Notes: generated by a model from the sequence alone, not told the origin. DNA of 62,495 bases, filler included, from Rhabdomonas costata (GCA_019059605.1; 40 parts of 40 records of this genome joined end to end with filler, not necessarily neighbours in it), one strand, 5' to 3'; positions 17,222 through 62,237 are shown, numbered from the whole stretch's first letter. Translations and numbers: made by a program.

Positions 17222-18460
17222 GGTGTGTGGGAAAAATAGCTGGAGAAAGGGTCTGCGGAGTTGTGTGAGGATGGGGTGAGAGCAAGCTGCACTTGGAGGC
17301 CATGCGCGAGGAAGAGCCGGTTAATGCGGTGGAGAAGGCGCACACGTTCATACACACACCCTGAGGCTTTTACTGTTCGCACCGTATGGTACGCCGCCGA
17401 GTTGTCACCAACAACACAAACGTTGGAAAGAACTGAGAGAGATGCCTGACGCAGAGAGCAGAAAATTATATACAACTCGGCGGTCTGTTGAGACTCGATC
17501 CAGGGTGTGGTGGGCACAGCTAGAGCAAGGGAGAAGTGGCAAACACACGCGGCCATAAACCCAAAACCCACGGGTGCCGAGTAGCAAAACATCAGGGGCA
17601 TGCAGGAAGGCTGGGGAAGACGGCGACAGGTGAAGGAGAAGATACAACAAATGAGAAGAGAGCACCAGTGGCGGCGGTGGAGGATTGGCGGTATGTTTGG
17701 TTGTAGTAGAAGTTGGTAACTGGAAGCCAGAAAGTGTGCGGACAGGAGGGTGGAAACCAACCACTGGAAGAATCCAAGGAGTCGCTGCAGAGAACGGAAC
17801 GTCAGTGCGCGGGTGCTGAGATACCACAGGTGTTGGAGTGCATACGCAACACGAGAGGGCATTTTGGAGACAGTCCCGTGTGAAATGTGTTTACCGAGCC
17901 AGACGATGGATTTGGTGGAGATTAATTTGGCCTTGGGGCTCATACAGAGACCCGCGGATGTGATGAGGTGAGCGCAGTAATAAGTAGCGAAGGAAATGTA
18001 ATAGGGGTCGGGAGAGGCAAGAAGTATGTCATCGAGATATTGAAAAAAGATAAGAGAGCCTAGAGACGAAAAAGGATGCAGGATGCGGCTGAGGGTGTGT
18101 TGTGCGAGTAGTGTAGACCAAAACCAACCGAAATGGAGGCGTAGGAGTCCAAAAGTTTGCTACCCAGCGGACAGTGCGAAGCGTACATGTACTGTGTGAT
18201 GAAGACACAAAACACCAAAACAAACAGACACATCCAGTTTGGTGAAGAACAAGGCCGAAGCATGGGAGGATTCCAAAATGCTGGAGAGCGTAGGAAGTGG
18301 AAAGCGAGGAGGTTTTGGCCTGTGCCTATTAGTGCCTATTTAGCATTCGCAGGTCCAGAAACAGGCGGGCTTTTTCCGGGGTTTTTGCAGTCACAAAGAC
18401 GGGGGACGCGGGCTGCTTTGTAAGCGGGAAGATGAGCCTCTGAGTTGCCAGCGTGTACAG
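17222..18460 (-). mobile_element. Decayed retroelement RT + RNase H (DIRS/VIPER/TATE-like tyrosine-recombinase class)
   Basis: KTPEKARLFLDLRMLN; LRLHFGWFWS..AQ; FQYLDDILL (YLDD at 18039-18028); IVWLGK; LQRLLGFFQW; RNase H motifs QQTAEL, VGDNSA, NSADPFS; in-frame TAG near 18161 and frameshifts; no introns. Confidence 0.85.
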
Positions 18461-29585: not shown

Positions 29586-31560
29586 GTGCCCTTTCCACCC
29601 TTCCCCCCATTTTTCCATTTTTCCGGAGCACACACACACACACNNNNNNNNNNNNNNNNNNNNNNNNNNNNNNNNNNNNNNNNNNNNTTAATTAATTAAN
29701 NNNNNNNNNNNNNNNNNNNNNNNNNNNNNNNNNNNNNNNNNNNGTTTTTTGTTTCCCACAACATCCACACCGCCCACGTCAACCCCGCTACACATCGCAC
29801 CCCATTGAAGCTTTCATCCAACATCCCGTGCACACACCGGTTTTCGCTGCAGTCCCCTTCCAGTTACTCCTCAACCTTACACCCTCCAGGAGTCCTGCCG
29901 TTTGAGCTCTCTACCCGTTGGTGTACCCGGCTTCTTTTTCGCTCTCCTTCCTCGCCGTAGAGGAGAGTTTCCAGTCGGGTCTGGGCGCTTCCTTCGTCGA
30001 ATCTCTCGTCTGTGTCTTGCTCATGGCCTATAAATTCAGCTCGCCCTCCCTCCTTCCGCTTCTAATCCCGCAGATGCTTTCTCTCGTTACCCTTCTCTCC
30101 CACCCTCTTCCCCACCTGTTCTGGCGCTACCTCACTCTCTCAATTCTGTCCTGAAGCGCCCTACCTCCGCGAGAGAGGGCCCCACCTGCTGACAACCACC
30201 TCAGGGTTAAGGCTCTTAGGGGCAACGGTGACAGTGGGGCCCCCAATGCAATCTAGCCGCTCATGGTCTCGAGTGCCTTGAACCCATTCGCTAGATGTCC
30301 CAGGGGTATAATGCATGCTAGGGTATGACATAGTACGGTGTCTGCTGCGCTCGTGATATTGCCTCAACTCGGCAAACTCACTCGATAGATGTCCAAGAAT
30401 GCATAACCCATGCTAGAGTATGACCTGCCAGTAAAGCATGATGAGGGTTGGGGGGGTTCCTGCGTTCGTGATCCCGGCTTGCAACCGGACTTGCTCACTC
30501 CAATACGCTAATACATTGAAGGTTGATCGCCAGAAAGGAAAGACCCGGTGAGGGATCCAAAGCACCCATACTTATAGAAGCCATGATCCAACGCATAGGC
30601 CAAGAATACCAACTGAGGGAGTCAGACCCATACCTGCTACGCTACCTTCTCACCCCACTGCATATCCCAGATACCACTATGAGTATGAGTGCTGACTAAG
30701 GTTACGCCCATCCTACCACGTGACCACCATCTGCTCCTTCCCGATGGGGTGTCCCGATGGGGTGCAAAAGCCCGCCACCAGGATGTCGCTGCTCAAATCA
30801 TCCACATACGACGGGAAACTACCGGAAACGCGCCGTAAACTCAGCGGTCGCCGTTATATTTCAGCCAATCCAGCCGGCTGCGACCTGGCGAAGGAGCTTC
30901 GAGCCGCATGGATGCAACTGAGCACAAATGACGTGAAGTGGGGGACGCGTTGCCTCTTTCCGTCCGTCCATGTATTTTCAATACGACGGCAGGATGGAAA
31001 CTGACCACCACACAAAATCCAAAAAATTTCGCAGCAATGAGAAGACGAGGAAGCGGAGAGACTAAAGTCATTGAAGGGGTGGGGCTTACCCAGGAACATC
31101 ACAGTCTCCTCCTGCTCCCATCTTGGCTCAAGCTGAGACGCCAGAACGACCAGATCGGATGGCCCCTCGTTCCCATGTCCCGAGGCATCCGAAAGAATAC
31201 CCACAGGCNNNNNNNNNNNNNNNNNNNNNNNNNNNNNNNNNNNNNNNNNNNNTTAATTAATTAANNNNNNNNNNNNNNNNNNNNNNNNNNNNNNNNNNNN
31301 NNNNNNNNGGTGGGGGGTGTAAGCCGTCAATAATCAAAATGACACACACCCATATTTCTTTTATGGCATTTTGATTATTGACGGCTTGCACGCCCAACTG
31401 TCCCGGGTGCTGGAAAGTAATGCCTTGCGCCACTTTGTGCCGATTGCGAGTTCACTGCGTACTGGTGTGCCAGACTAAAGTGAAGGCATCCTCGACAACC
31501 GGACAACCGGGGCGTCCAGATATTCCTTCACACCTGACCCTCGTACATGTGTATGCACAG

Positions 31561-32770
31561 GTGCAGCCTAAGATGCACATCGTGACGGACTCTCTGGTGG
31601 TGAAGGGCAAGGCCGACCTGGCGCTGAAGTCTGTCCTGGCCCCGCTGTCCAAGGGTCCCCTGGCGCCGCGGCGGCTGACCGCGGAGATGGACCGATTGCT
31701 GGACTGGGAGACCACCGCCTGGGTGGACAACTCCACGCCCAGCCTAATGCGCGACATGAGCCTGTGCGTGGGGTGCACGAGGTGCGTGCGGGCGTGCTCC
31801 GACCTGCAGGGCATGGGGATCCTGGAGCCTAGCGTGGAGGAGCTCAACCAGATTGTCACCACGACCAACGGAGAGACGCTGAAGGACACGGACTGCATCC
31901 TGTGCGGGCAGTGCTCGGTATGCACCCGAACGGCAGTGGCCCGCTGTTCTGCGGCTACGGCCGCATAACGATAAACTTTTGGAGGAGGGGGGGGGCGAGC
32001 CCTTTGTCTGATGTTTAGAGAACTGAGAAGCTCTGAAATGTGACAGCGAGCAACTTTGCATGCACGACCCCAAGCGCTTCGCTGCGCCGTGAATCTGAAG
32101 CGGGGAGCCCTGGTGGCCGGTGATTCTAAGCCGCGCAATCTGTGATCTGTTCAGATCTGACACTGTGCTTGGATGCGCAACTGAGCATTCTTTCCAACCA
32201 GGTTGTCGACATGTTGTGGTTGTGATGTTTTTTGTTATTCTTGCAACCCGAAAGCCATCCTTGCAATCCAAAAAGCGTATGTGTATGTGTTTATGTTCGA
32301 ATATGCGAGTGAGTTGACGGGAAGGCATGCCTGTGTTGTGTTAGGTTAAACGTCTGTGGGCATGGTGCATTGTTTTGCCTTTCACAGGTGTTCTGCCCCA
32401 CTGGCGCGATTGTGGAGAAGGACGATGTCCAGGCAGTTATCAGTGCGATGGAGGTGATTTTTTTCGTGTCAATGCACATTTGCTTTTGGTTCACCCCGTA
32501 CACTGTCCTCATTCGCCTGCATCGTCTCGCATTTCCAAAAACTCCCCATTTGTTATCCCTCCTCCTCACCGCCCATATCAATCGCCATTTTCGAACTCAG
32601 CACTGCCCGTGAAAATAGTGAAATATCATTCCCATCAGGACATAAATAGTGCACACGATGTTTCTATTGGGCTGTGTGGTCACCTCTCCCGTCTCATGCT
32701 TTCTTCTCTCTTTCTTGCCTTGGTGTCTGCACACAGGCCGGAATGGTGGTTACCCTGCAAACTGCCCCAG
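31561..32770 (+). CDS. hydA: [FeFe]-hydrogenase fragment: 2[4Fe-4S] F-domain and start of the H-domain; exons 31561-31917, 32388-32453, 32737-contig end
   Basis: DNSTPSLMRDMSLCVGCTRCVRAC..QGMGIL..LKDTDCILCGQCS|VFCPTGAIVEKDD|AGMVVTLQTAP; two CxxCxxCxxxC motifs followed by QTAP; GT-AG introns, phase 0. Confidence 0.88.
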
Positions 32771-33127
32771 GAANNNNNNNNNNNNNNNNNNNNNNNNNNN
32801 NNNNNNNNNNNNNNNNNTTAATTAATTAANNNNNNNNNNNNNNNNNNNNNNNNNNNNNNNNNNNNNNNNNNNNCAGGTATACAACAGAGCCTTCCCTTTA
32901 TGGCTGTGCTGTCATTACTTCCGATTTTTGAAGGCACTGCGTATATTTCGCCTTCGGAAGCTGACGAGGATAACGACGCCTCCGAAACACATGAATGATG
33001 CGACTGCTGGCAGTGCGTTTAACAGGATCAGCTTAACAGTTCAGATGTGAACTGACCACCTGTCCACCACTGAGCTGATTTCCGGTGGAGTTCTGCTGAC
33101 AAGGCAAACATTTCTCATCACCGGGGC

Positions 33128-46055: not shown

Positions 46056-47048
46056 CTGAAACAACCAACACACCACCCAGTGCGAGAGCGTGAGGAAGAG
46101 AGTGAGAAGGAAAATGATGGCGACGCACAATAATGAGAGGAGCCAAGCGGCAAAATGCTACACCGATGCCTTATCCTGAAGAGCGTATCGTAAATGAGCT
46201 AAGAGGACTCAGGCTCCGGCGAATGCTTGAGGTTGGCAGCTACAACGGAGACGCTATGTGACACCAGCATGTGCAACACCGGGAAAAAAACAAAATCTGA
46301 CATGAACGTGTGTGCTTGTAGAGACTCTCCCAAAAAAAAATGTTGAAACCCACATTGGCGACAAATACATATGTCAATGTGTTCGGGCCACCACCACTGA
46401 TAAAATCAAAAGATACCAGTAACAACAATGAATGCAGAAAAAAGCTCATCGAAGCAATTCATTTATGGAGCACAGCCAAAGAAGATGTACTGACCTGCAG
46501 GAACTCATTCCTCGACGGAGGGGTCTGTGCAGGTGCTGCAGCAAAACAGGCAGGGTCCGAAGTGCCCTCACCAGACACCCCGACTGTGCCTGGCCTCCCA
46601 TTGTCGTCCTGCAAGAGATGATCAATCGAGAGAAAATAGGCCCAAGCTGGAGCCTTCAGGAGGACACTGACCGAAAATAAAGCTGGCCGAGCTGACTACA
46701 ACCGAGGAGGTCTTCAAAACTCCGTTGAAAAATTAAACAAACAAATGTGGAACGAACAGCCCATAGTCGCACTGAATTCTACTCGCGCCCTGTCAGAACA
46801 GAGTGCTCACCCAGAACAGACCCGATAGACAAAAGCAAAACACAACAAAAACAANNNNNNNNNNNNNNNNNNNNNNNNNNNNNNNNNNNNNNNNNNNNTT
46901 AATTAATTAANNNNNNNNNNNNNNNNNNNNNNNNNNNNNNNNNNNNNNNNNNNNGTTTCGTGCTCAGCTAATGAAGTGCATCACAATGCTAACCACATGC
47001 TGGCAAATGAAATCCGAACAATGAAAAGCTGAAAAAGCTGGTGCGCAC

Positions 47049-47989
47049 CGCAGGAGATGAAGATCTTCTCTCCGGTGATTCTGTAAGTACCGTCACCTGC
47101 CGGAATAGCCTTGGTCTTCACTTGGTTCAGGTCCGTCCCGGCCTGCGACTCCGTCAGGTCCATCACTCCCGTCCACTCCCCGGAGGTCAGCTTGGGCAGG
47201 TAGGTGTCCTTCAGCTGAAAGACAATCATTTGACGGATGTTGCACTGATGGTGGTGCTGCATCGGCCACACTGCCGGGAGAGAAGATCAACTTAGCCCAC
47301 CCGAAGAAAAGCAAGAAGGCAATTATCAAAGTATGTGTCGCTGGCTGATGCAATTAATCGGCAATCCGAACACGTCCAATCAGGAAAAAGGAAAAAAGAA
47401 AACGCAGGGAGGACAAAACACGCCATACGTAGTCAGTCCCGTGAAGCAGAATGGTTTCCATGCAACCCATCGACAGCCCGGGGTACATACCCCAGGGTGA
47501 GTTCGCCGCCCCGCAGAGCTGAGAAAATGTGTAAACAAGAAAATATGAAATGACACAGCGCACCGGGAAAGTGCATGGTCCCAATACATGCTAACAGACC
47601 TCGGAGCGAACCAGCCCCAGAGATGCCGGCATCCCCTGGCCTCCGTACTTCTGAGGCATCGAGAGCCCAGCCCATCCCGCCTCGCGGTACGCCAGGTAGG
47701 CCTCCTTCCAGCCCTTCGGGGTGGTCACCTCCCCATCCTTGAAGACACAGCCCTCATCCCCGGCCTGGTAGATCGGGATCAGCGCCGTCTCCATGAACTT
47801 CGCAGCCTCCGTGATGATGCTTTGCACGGTGTCCGGGGTGGCATCCTCGTTGCCCAGCTTGGCGTAGTGCGCCGGGAAGTTCTGCACGTCGTTCAGCACG
47901 AAGAACAGGTCCCTCAGGCGGGCCTTGTAGGTCAGGCCGCGGGCCTGGGCGGCCAGCCTGGGGCTTGCGGCGATGGTGCGGCGCATCAT
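47049..47989 (-). CDS. Mitochondrial-targeted acyl-CoA dehydrogenase (bacterial-type N-terminus), 5' part; exons 47989-47600, 47518-47429, 47214-47049
   Basis: MMRRTIAASPRL presequence; YKARLRDLFFVL, YGGQGMP, WGMYPGLSMG, YLPKLTSGEWTGVMDLTESQAGTDL, GEKIFISC; junctions in frame. Confidence 0.95.
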
Positions 47990-60931: not shown

Positions 60932-61268
60932 NNNNNNNNNNNNNNNNNNNNNNNNNNNNNNNNNNNNNNNNNNNNTTAATTAATTAANNNNNNNNNNNNN
61001 NNNNNNNNNNNNNNNNNNNNNNNNNNNNNNNGGAGTTTGGGAATTGGAGGGAGTGACACAGACGTCGAGTTTTCATGGCTTCACGATACCTCCGAATGTT
61101 CCCTCTCCTCGGTAACGCACCATGAGTTGTTCCTGAATTGCCTCACTTTCCTCGCCAGATTTCTTCTTGTGGCCTATTCCTTGTGATGTCTACTTCTCTT
61201 TTTGTTCTCTGCTTTCAGGATGTACTGGGTGTGGCGCTTCTTTTTGCTTTATCGTCCCACTGCCTCAG

Positions 61269-62237
61269 GGCTTCGGGTGAGGATGGGTATGCAAGTCGGG
61301 GAGCCCGAGGTAGTGGTGGACCACTCCACGATCCGGGTGGACTACCTTGGGTCCATGGTGAACGAGGCGGCGCGGGTGGGGTCGCGGGCGCACGGCGGGG
61401 AGATCTGCCTGACCCAGGACGTGATGAACATAATCGGTAGGGCTCGAAACTGTGAGCAGTGGGTGGTGAAGCTCCTGGGCGAACAATATTTTCAGGTGCT
61501 TCTGAGAGTTGGCGCTGGTTGCGCGTTGCGAAGCGACATTTTCCGACTTTCCTTTGGGAAGACGGCAAGTTGAGGTCAGTCTGGATCCATGTGCGCAATT
61601 TATATACGTACCTTCTGAGTTCATTGGAGGCTACCTTCTGGACATGTGTATTTGATCGGAAGCCAACTCGATGGAGTTCTGAACACCGGTCAGCCTGCTT
61701 CGGTTGGCTTCCTCGGTCCTCGCAAAAAAAGTTTTTAGATATCCTGTGCGATCCTCATGCCCTTGTTTCTCTTGTGGTCGGTTGAGACCAAGCTGCTACC
61801 GCACCGGCATTCGATGATGATCTATCACTCATAGGATGAGCAAAGGATTTGGCTGTCATGGAGCACATTTTTTTGGTGTGACCTTAGAGTTCCCTCCCGG
61901 CTCCGATGGCTTCGTATCACGTTTGGAATCCCATTGCGCGACTTTGCTTCTTCTCCGAAGATGGTCTCATTTGTTGCCACAGTGCTAGGCCTCCTGTTAT
62001 CCCCCCACCTCATGGTGTTCCTTGAACAGTTTTTCCCTGCTGCTGCTATGCCACAGGGGGTCGGGCACGCCATCGCGGTGTACTCCCTGCATCACCGCTC
62101 CTTGGCCGAGCGCACGTACCCTCCGGAGAAGCCGTTGGCGTGCGACCACTGCCAGGAGCCTCTGGAATGCCCTCGGTGCGACGGCTGCGCTGGCTCCTTC
62201 TCACTGGAACGAAAGGTCACATTCAGGAGGCCTCCAG
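61269..62237 (+). CDS. Class III adenylate cyclase C-terminal half followed by a Cys-rich motif; exons 61269-61495 and 62057-62237
   Basis: GLRVRMGMQVGEP...VDYLGSMVNEAARVGSRAHGGEICLT...LGEQYFQ|GVGHAIAVY..LAERTYP; then CDHC-x5-CPRC. Confidence 0.92.

Follow-up and report, generated by a model that had tools for sequence, protein, structure and literature searches.

With a probability of roughly 80%, contig 21 of the DNA analyzed here carries a piece of an intron-bearing nuclear gene from a microbial eukaryote, and the predicted product of this gene is a long [FeFe]-hydrogenase of group A, in the fused class described as "NuoG-like N-terminus / HydA / CysJ C-terminus." The fragment is a further member of an already known enzyme class. 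Although real, it is not long enough to demonstrate catalytic competence, cofactor coupling, location, or host.

The stretch of DNA under study (the window) is 62,495 bases long and consists of 40 contigs of 1461–1467 bp each (~1465 bp), which were artificially concatenated through 39 linkers of 100 bp with the form N44-TTAATTAATTAA-N44. Because the contigs are unlinked, inference from the neighborhood of one contig to another is invalid. The hydrogenase fragment lies wholly on contig 21 (31309–32773, GC 0.544), where we identified the following features.

31309–31560, plus strand: 3′ part of the upstream intron, read from the sequence, with the acceptor AG at 31559–31560
31561–31917, plus strand: exon A, 119 amino acids; AG before (31559–31560), GTATGC after (31918)
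31918–32387, plus strand: intron 1, 470 nt, GTATGC...TTTCACAG
32388–32453, plus strand: exon B, 22 amino acids, VFCPTGAIVEKDDVQAVISAME; CACAG before, GTGATT after
32454–32736, plus strand: intron 2, 283 nt, GTGATT...CACACAG
32737–32773, plus strand: exon C, 12 amino acids, AGMVVTLQTAPG, plus one base; CACAG before, cut by the contig end

Exon structure and identity of the contig 21 fragment

Reading and translation of the sequence confirmed the original prediction of three exons, separated by GT-AG introns, that join in frame to give two CxxCxxCxxxC motifs and the start of the H-domain. In exon A, a linker stands where the His-ligated FS4C cluster would be, and the first 4Fe-4S motif (CVGCTRCVRAC) is complete. 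The second motif straddles the exon A/B junction, with CILCGQCS provided by exon A and VFCP by exon B; exon B completes it and makes the F/H linker. Exon C represents the first strand of the H-domain (its first 12 residues) and aligns with AGMTVILQTAPG of P0003, an environmental protein described below. On read-through of the exon A donor, an in-frame stop is reached 16 codons into intron 1.

The spliced peptide comprises 153 amino acids and is 78% identical to P0003 across 152 columns. Beyond the part matched by exon A, P0003 follows exons B and C (...CGQCSVFCPTGAIVEKDDV.AVI.AMEAGM.V.LQTAPG), and neither junction shows an indel in the alignment with intronless homologues. This gap-free collinearity with P0003 validates both inferred splice junctions. 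In a tblastn search of the window with P0003, exon A was recovered at E=1.5e-49, and the three-exon signal as a whole is far beyond chance. The homologues P0003, P0006, and P0007 align with the window from 31555–31558 onward only (tblastn), and an exon 5′ of 31309, expected to encode the 2Fe-2S domain and the N terminus, would lie off contig 21. When we looked for the remainder of the gene by tblastn with P0003, P0006, P0007, and P0008, contig 21 alone was matched among the 40 contigs. The GT-AG introns indicate a eukaryotic nuclear gene and bear out the earlier argument that spliceosomal introns exclude a bacterial contaminant.

Searches with exon A were consistent with the proposed enzyme class. 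The best match in the PDB was Thermotoga HydA (7p5h_A, E=3.5e-11, with 115 distinct sequences at E≤1), and CpI-type chains were found at ~5e-5. Pfam Fer4 scored 23 bits against a cut-off of 21.1. In a collection of 5.8 billion proteins, the same exon drew 117 candidates, three of which reached E≤0.001; P0003 ranked first, with 74% identity over 100% of the exon, and no protein in this collection was ≥90% identical to the hydrogenase exon. The two ferredoxin-type [4Fe-4S] motifs stand directly N-terminal to the H-domain and run collinearly into its first strand, as seen from exon C and the ...ILQTAPG of the homologues. These data uphold the earlier assignment: the fragment spans the point at which the F-domain of a group A [FeFe]-hydrogenase passes into the H-domain.

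We also considered whether the exons might instead code for an Fe-S domain from NuoG/NDUFS1 or from the alpha subunit of a formate dehydrogenase. Exon A has a weak Fer4_Nqo3 match (E=0.0003, under its cut-off), and two of the relatives are labelled by their source as "NADH-quinone oxidoreductase subunit G," both of which would fit such an origin. The hydrogenase match at 3.5e-11, however, compares with 6.8e-5 for the formate dehydrogenase alpha subunit 6tg9_A and with 0.12–0.2 for NDUFS1, exon C aligns to the start of the H-domain, and the relatives labelled as NuoG carry Pfam Fe_hyd_lg_C. We give this reading next to no credence. Hydrogenases were the best matches both by PDB E-value and by the presence of Pfam PF02906 in the close relatives listed, and together with the exon C alignment these results led us to reject NuoG, formate dehydrogenase, and Nar1 as identities of the fragment.

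Exon A is free of Cys over its first 67 residues. This part covers the FS4C position, so the loss of the FS4C cluster is directly visible in the window.

Full-length relatives and the fused architecture

P0003 is an environmental protein of 1169 amino acids encoded on a 4108-nt contig (L001). It matches Pfam Fer2_4, Fer4, Fe_hyd_lg_C, Fe_hyd_SSU, Flavodoxin_1, FAD_binding_1, and NAD_binding_1, in an order that starts with 2Fe-2S and two 4Fe-4S sites, continues with an H-domain containing all three H-cluster motifs, and ends with flavodoxin/FAD/NAD(P). In group A [FeFe]-hydrogenases these motifs are L1 (TSCCPxW), L2 (MPCxxKxxE), and L3 (ExMxCxxGCxxGGGQP). A second search, in which the hydrogenase part of P0003 was the query, scored 8000 candidates and gave 4360 proteins at E≤1e-10, the best 120 of which were listed. 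The nearest among the matches listed were P0006 (Logan, 1201 amino acids), P0007 (EukProt RCo029411, 1175 amino acids), and Fe-hydrogenase 2 of Stygiella incarcerata, followed by the fused hydrogenases of Paratrimastix, Trimastix, Carpediemonas ("CysJ-fused"), Pelomyxa, Tritrichomonas, Histomonas, and a diatom. Every close relative among the matches listed carries PF02906. A search of the ESM Atlas with P0003 returned no usable match.

The three nearest proteins, P0003, P0006, and P0007, are uniform in their layout. All three contain TSCCPAW, MPCVAKKDE, and EMMACPSGCIGGGGQ, one 2Fe-2S motif followed by two CxxCxxCxxxC motifs, and the flavodoxin (PF00258) and FAD_binding_1 (PF00667) domains within 1169–1201 amino acids; NAD_binding_1 (PF00175) is listed for P0003 and P0007. 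L1 was found in all 11 fused proteins that we examined, and the exact L2 and L3 patterns in 10 of 11 each. The His-ligated FS4C motif HxxxCxxCxxxxxC occurs in none of these 11 and is absent from exon A too. Likewise, among the matches listed, the FS4C family PF10588 is not in the Pfam lists of the closest fused relatives (e.g. P0003, P0006, and P0007) and is present in bacterial matches. Since the window holds nothing of the gene past H-domain residue 12, its H-cluster ligands, CysJ module, and intactness are predicted from relatives that are 58–78% identical.

It is improbable, although less so than some of the other alternatives, that the gene encodes a long [FeFe]-hydrogenase with no full CysJ module, that is, HydA alone or with a flavodoxin domain only, which would depend on ferredoxin or flavodoxin and not on NAD(P)H. 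The C terminus of the fragment's gene lies outside the window, and two shorter close relatives among the matches listed, P0019 (704 amino acids) and P0021 (810 amino acids, Carpediemonas), have Flavodoxin_1 and lack FAD_binding_1 and NAD_binding_1. Against this stands the uniform flavodoxin and FAD content of the three full-length proteins described above, which are the full-length members of the fragment's own 100/100 clade (see below). The CysJ-fused architecture is the preferred reading.

A second alternative is a decayed or noncatalytic relative, either a pseudogene or a Nar1/NARF-like Fe-S assembly factor. A Nar1/NARF-like protein would be expected to have one Fe-S cluster site, at the N terminus, and to lack a full pair of ferredoxin motifs. 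The fragment contains two complete CxxCxxCxxxC motifs, its three exons are open and have a strong codon bias (GC3 0.86), and at 78% identity it resembles P0003, in which all H-cluster motifs are present. No Nar1-named protein was found among the matches listed (best 120 of 4360). Although the catalytic region falls outside the window and the sole hydrogenase-like transcript reported in Euglena gracilis is NAR-like, according to the text available from PMC10407231, we regard decay or a Nar1-type function as highly improbable.

CysJ-fused [FeFe]-hydrogenases are known from Trichomonas vaginalis, Pygsuia biforma, Stygiella incarcerata, Pelomyxa schiedti, Paratrimastix pyriformis, and Trimastix marina, as described in portions of PMC4989108 and PMC10703272. 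Like the fragment, these enzymes, for example Stygiella Fe-hydrogenase 2 (UniRef A0A192ZIW2, P0008; 46% identity with exon A by tblastn), lack FS4C and have two 4Fe-4S sites followed by the H-domain, and the relatives have a 2Fe-2S site in addition. Bacterial M3-type group A enzymes such as Thermotoga maritima HydA (7p5h) and Clostridium pasteurianum CpI (e.g. 1feh and 3c8y) share the two ferredoxin-type clusters directly before the H-domain. In contrast, they possess the His-ligated FS4C cluster (PF10588) that is absent in the fragment and its relatives, and they have neither a CysJ module nor introns. CysJ-fused hydrogenases also occur, among the matches listed, in a diatom, Amphora coffeiformis (1346 amino acids), and in its environmental relatives, which together comprise P0046, P0118, P0042, and P0099; this indicates that the fused class is not limited to obligate anaerobes.

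Phylogenetic placement and the Rhabdomonas costata protein

For phylogenetic analysis, the spliced peptide was aligned with 52 proteins chosen from the searches (top-ranked sequences, named eukaryotes, and four bacteria), with residues 1–570 of P0003 as columns. A quick tree was computed under LG+G4 from all 53 rows and 570 columns, and a careful tree under LG+C20 from 30 of those 53 rows and 568 columns; the fragment occupies only 27% of the tree columns. In the quick tree, the fragment joined P0003 (90), then P0006 (98), and then RCo029411 (SH-aLRT 100). In the careful tree, the pair of the window sequence and P0003 received 99/85, and the group of these two with P0006 and RCo029411 received 100/100. 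The fragment was nested within the fused-hydrogenase assemblage in both trees. The careful tree gave no resolution deeper than this four-member clade, including the place of the clade among the other fused hydrogenases, and portions of PMC4989108 describe trees of the hydrogenase family as poorly resolved, with no clear donor lineage.

Identifiers of the form RCo0xxxxx denote transcripts of Rhabdomonas costata in the text available from PMC8219788, and hence the only named member of the clade comes from a euglenid. RCo029411 (P0007) is a predicted protein that has all H-cluster motifs and the flavodoxin/FAD/NAD module. It is 58% identical to the fragment across exon A, and because identity is only this high, the two genes would have to come from different species or be paralogues. 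The source of RCo029411 is the transcriptome of a non-axenic culture. Based on the trees and motifs, the fragment, RCo029411, and the two environmental relatives form a distinct, fully supported clade of predicted CysJ-fused hydrogenases, whose full-length members have intact H-cluster motifs. The fragment's clade is thus set apart from the other CysJ-fused hydrogenases, with the fragment's own CysJ part assigned from its relatives. Its named member, R. costata, has cristate, facultatively anaerobic mitochondria and is not an obligate anaerobe, in contrast to the anaerobic protists named above.

In the main text of the R. costata paper (PMC8219788), the word-start "hydrogen" occurs 0 times and hydrogenase is never mentioned. 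Our literature searches found no work linking Rhabdomonas with hydrogenase and none joining Euglenozoa, FeFe hydrogenase, and HydE; the works retrieved for Euglenozoa with hydrogenase and hydrogenosome included, as judged by title, none about a euglenozoan hydrogenase. E. gracilis is described in the available text of PMC10407231 as having no HYDA, only a NAR-like hydrogenase-like transcript, and barely detectable H2. The same source reports that T. pseudonana has HYDA but neither HYDEF nor HYDG and that its H2 is barely detectable; the three maturases HydE, HydF, and HydG are required for active H2 metabolism. The original prediction had called hydrogen-producing mitochondria or anaerobic H2 metabolism unusual for Euglenozoa. 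The reported lack of HYDA in E. gracilis (PMC10407231, as far as its available text goes) agrees with that part of the claim, whereas the presence of a full-length homologue, RCo029411, in public R. costata data takes away from it. Taken together, the comparisons point to a previously unremarked clade that appears to be euglenid-associated.

Host, location, and proposed function

We compared the composition of contig 21 with the rest of the window. Its trinucleotide profile is ordinary (r=0.822, rank 17 of 40), and the GC3 of the hydrogenase exons is 0.86, close to the 0.89 of an acyl-CoA dehydrogenase exon on another contig and distant from the 0.47 of the P0003 gene. These values are weakly consistent with one organism across the contigs. 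They also bear on the alternative that the gene comes from a eukaryote present as a contaminant or in co-culture and not from the main source of the assembly, in which case it would be silent on the metabolism of the main host. The window comprises 40 short unlinked contigs and the closest relatives of the fragment are environmental sequences, both of which are compatible with such a foreign source, but trinucleotide rank and GC3, weak evidence from 1.5 kb, speak against it. We consider a contaminating source unlikely. A euglenid-related host, suggested on the basis of this one gene by its clade with RCo029411, is slightly more probable than not. The host would be neither R. costata itself, given the 58% identity, nor E. 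gracilis: the lack in the 5.8-billion-protein collection of any protein ≥90% identical to the hydrogenase exon or the acyl-CoA dehydrogenase exon argues against a species with abundant transcriptome data.

The other contigs hold eukaryotic gene fragments that match RVT_1, Guanylate_cyc, Glyco_transf_22, DUF676, Acyltransf_C, Glyco_transf_90, and ABC2_membrane. An open frame of 312 amino acids on the minus strand (17224–18159) has a weak RVT_1 match (E=1.7e-4, under the cut-off) and a YLDD motif and is probably a retroelement fragment, judging from these sequence features. An exon on the plus strand (61187–61570) gives a match to Guanylate_cyc, the catalytic domain of adenylate/guanylate cyclases (E=2.3e-6). 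Rfam gave 0 matches over the whole window, and hence no rRNA or spliced-leader RNA.

Contig 21 begins, from its second base, with a fold-back inverted repeat (31310–31344 and 31364–31398; 35 nt, 89% complementary, 19-nt loop). Similar fold-backs occur on contigs 27 and 39, starting at base 1 of their 3′ ends. We rejected the contig 21 repeat as a mobile-element terminus in favor of an assembly (or amplification) artifact because 3 of the 40 contigs have terminal fold-backs, two of which start at base 1.

The acyl-CoA dehydrogenase gene, which had been proposed to bear on the hydrogenase, was located as follows.

47020–47989, minus strand: acyl-CoA dehydrogenase gene on contig 31 (46955–48419), with at least three exons and GT-AG introns

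The encoded protein is of the ~600-amino-acid bacterial FadE-like type, and its start, MMRRTIAASPRLAAQARG, is presequence-like. Of the 597 candidates found with its exon, 65 reached E≤1e-5. The best match was an environmental protein (68%) with a likewise basic N terminus, and the other named matches were bacterial (39–60%); there was no named eukaryote among the 65, and no protein in the collection was ≥90% identical. As this gene lies on contig 31 and the hydrogenase on contig 21, the two are unlinked, and the proposed connection fell away.

The suggestion of hydrogen-producing mitochondria was not supported either. In addition to the unlinked dehydrogenase, the N terminus of the hydrogenase is off the contig, and the class to which its relatives belong is hypothesized to be NAD(P)H-dependent and predicted to be cytosolic or of unknown location, as stated in portions of PMC4989108 and PMC10703272. 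Specifically, the fused hydrogenases of Stygiella, Trichomonas, and Pygsuia are predicted to be cytosolic in the available text of PMC4989108, and that of PMC10703272 gives the fused hydrogenases as not found in the organelle proteome of Paratrimastix. The clade relatives differ in their N-terminal extensions, which measure ~43 amino acids in P0006, ~22 in P0007, and ~5 in P0003. The P0006 extension is basic and acid-free, and this N terminus is presequence-like with an RxY|T motif.

We also inspected L001 for a euglenid spliced leader. The sequence TTTTTTCG, given in part of PMC8219788 as the 3′ end of a partial euglenid spliced leader, occurs once on L001 (268–275) and ends 18 nt upstream of the P0003 ATG. 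We rejected it as evidence because 49 of 200 shuffles match at least once in the contig and because 267 nt of unrelated, loosely repetitive sequence lie upstream. Its occurrence is ambiguous between chimeric transcript assembly through a leader and coincidence.

The fragment encodes two accessory [4Fe-4S] sites, a Cys-free linker at the position of FS4C, and the entry to the H-domain. Going by the three full-length relatives in the clade, the complete protein would consist of a 2Fe-2S site, two 4Fe-4S sites, the H-cluster domain, a small-subunit-like tail, and flavodoxin (FMN), FAD, and NAD(P)-binding domains. Electrons would then pass from NAD(P)H through FAD and FMN to the F-clusters and on to the H-cluster, where protons would be reduced to H2, or the whole chain may run in reverse; in either case the path would operate without soluble ferredoxin. 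NAD(P)H-dependent H2 formation by the fused class has been hypothesized (PMC10703272, in part). A similar design logic may underlie pyruvate:NADP+ oxidoreductase (PNO) of E. gracilis mitochondria, which also appears as a CysJ fusion, with PFO and not HydA as the catalytic domain. PNO is described in excerpts of PMC6732389 as the PFO-CysJ fusion of Euglena mitochondria. Portions of PMC8219788 report that R. costata has PNO and survives one month of anoxia.

We offer, as a speculative proposal to which we assign a low likelihood, that euglenids ancestrally had a HydA-CysJ hydrogenase that was active and NADPH-linked. The enzyme might, in some species at least, be imported into the facultatively anaerobic mitochondrion, where it would re-oxidize the NADPH made by PNO. 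Pyruvate would then lead to H2 by way of NADPH, bypassing ferredoxin. In E. gracilis the enzyme would have been lost secondarily. Euglenids are the textbook example of H2-free wax-ester fermentation.

[FeFe]-hydrogenases mark anaerobic energy metabolism in eukaryotes, and their patchy spread feeds the debate on vertical descent versus lateral transfer. In the literature searched, Euglenozoa are treated as being without [FeFe]-hydrogenases. The fragment by itself proves neither a consequence for euglenids nor the formation of H2 from NAD(P)H. Should the clade prove to be euglenid, the fused class would reach a lineage that also uses PNO and whose mitochondria are cristate and facultatively anaerobic, and the long-standing hypothesis of H2 formation from NAD(P)H by these fusions would become directly testable.
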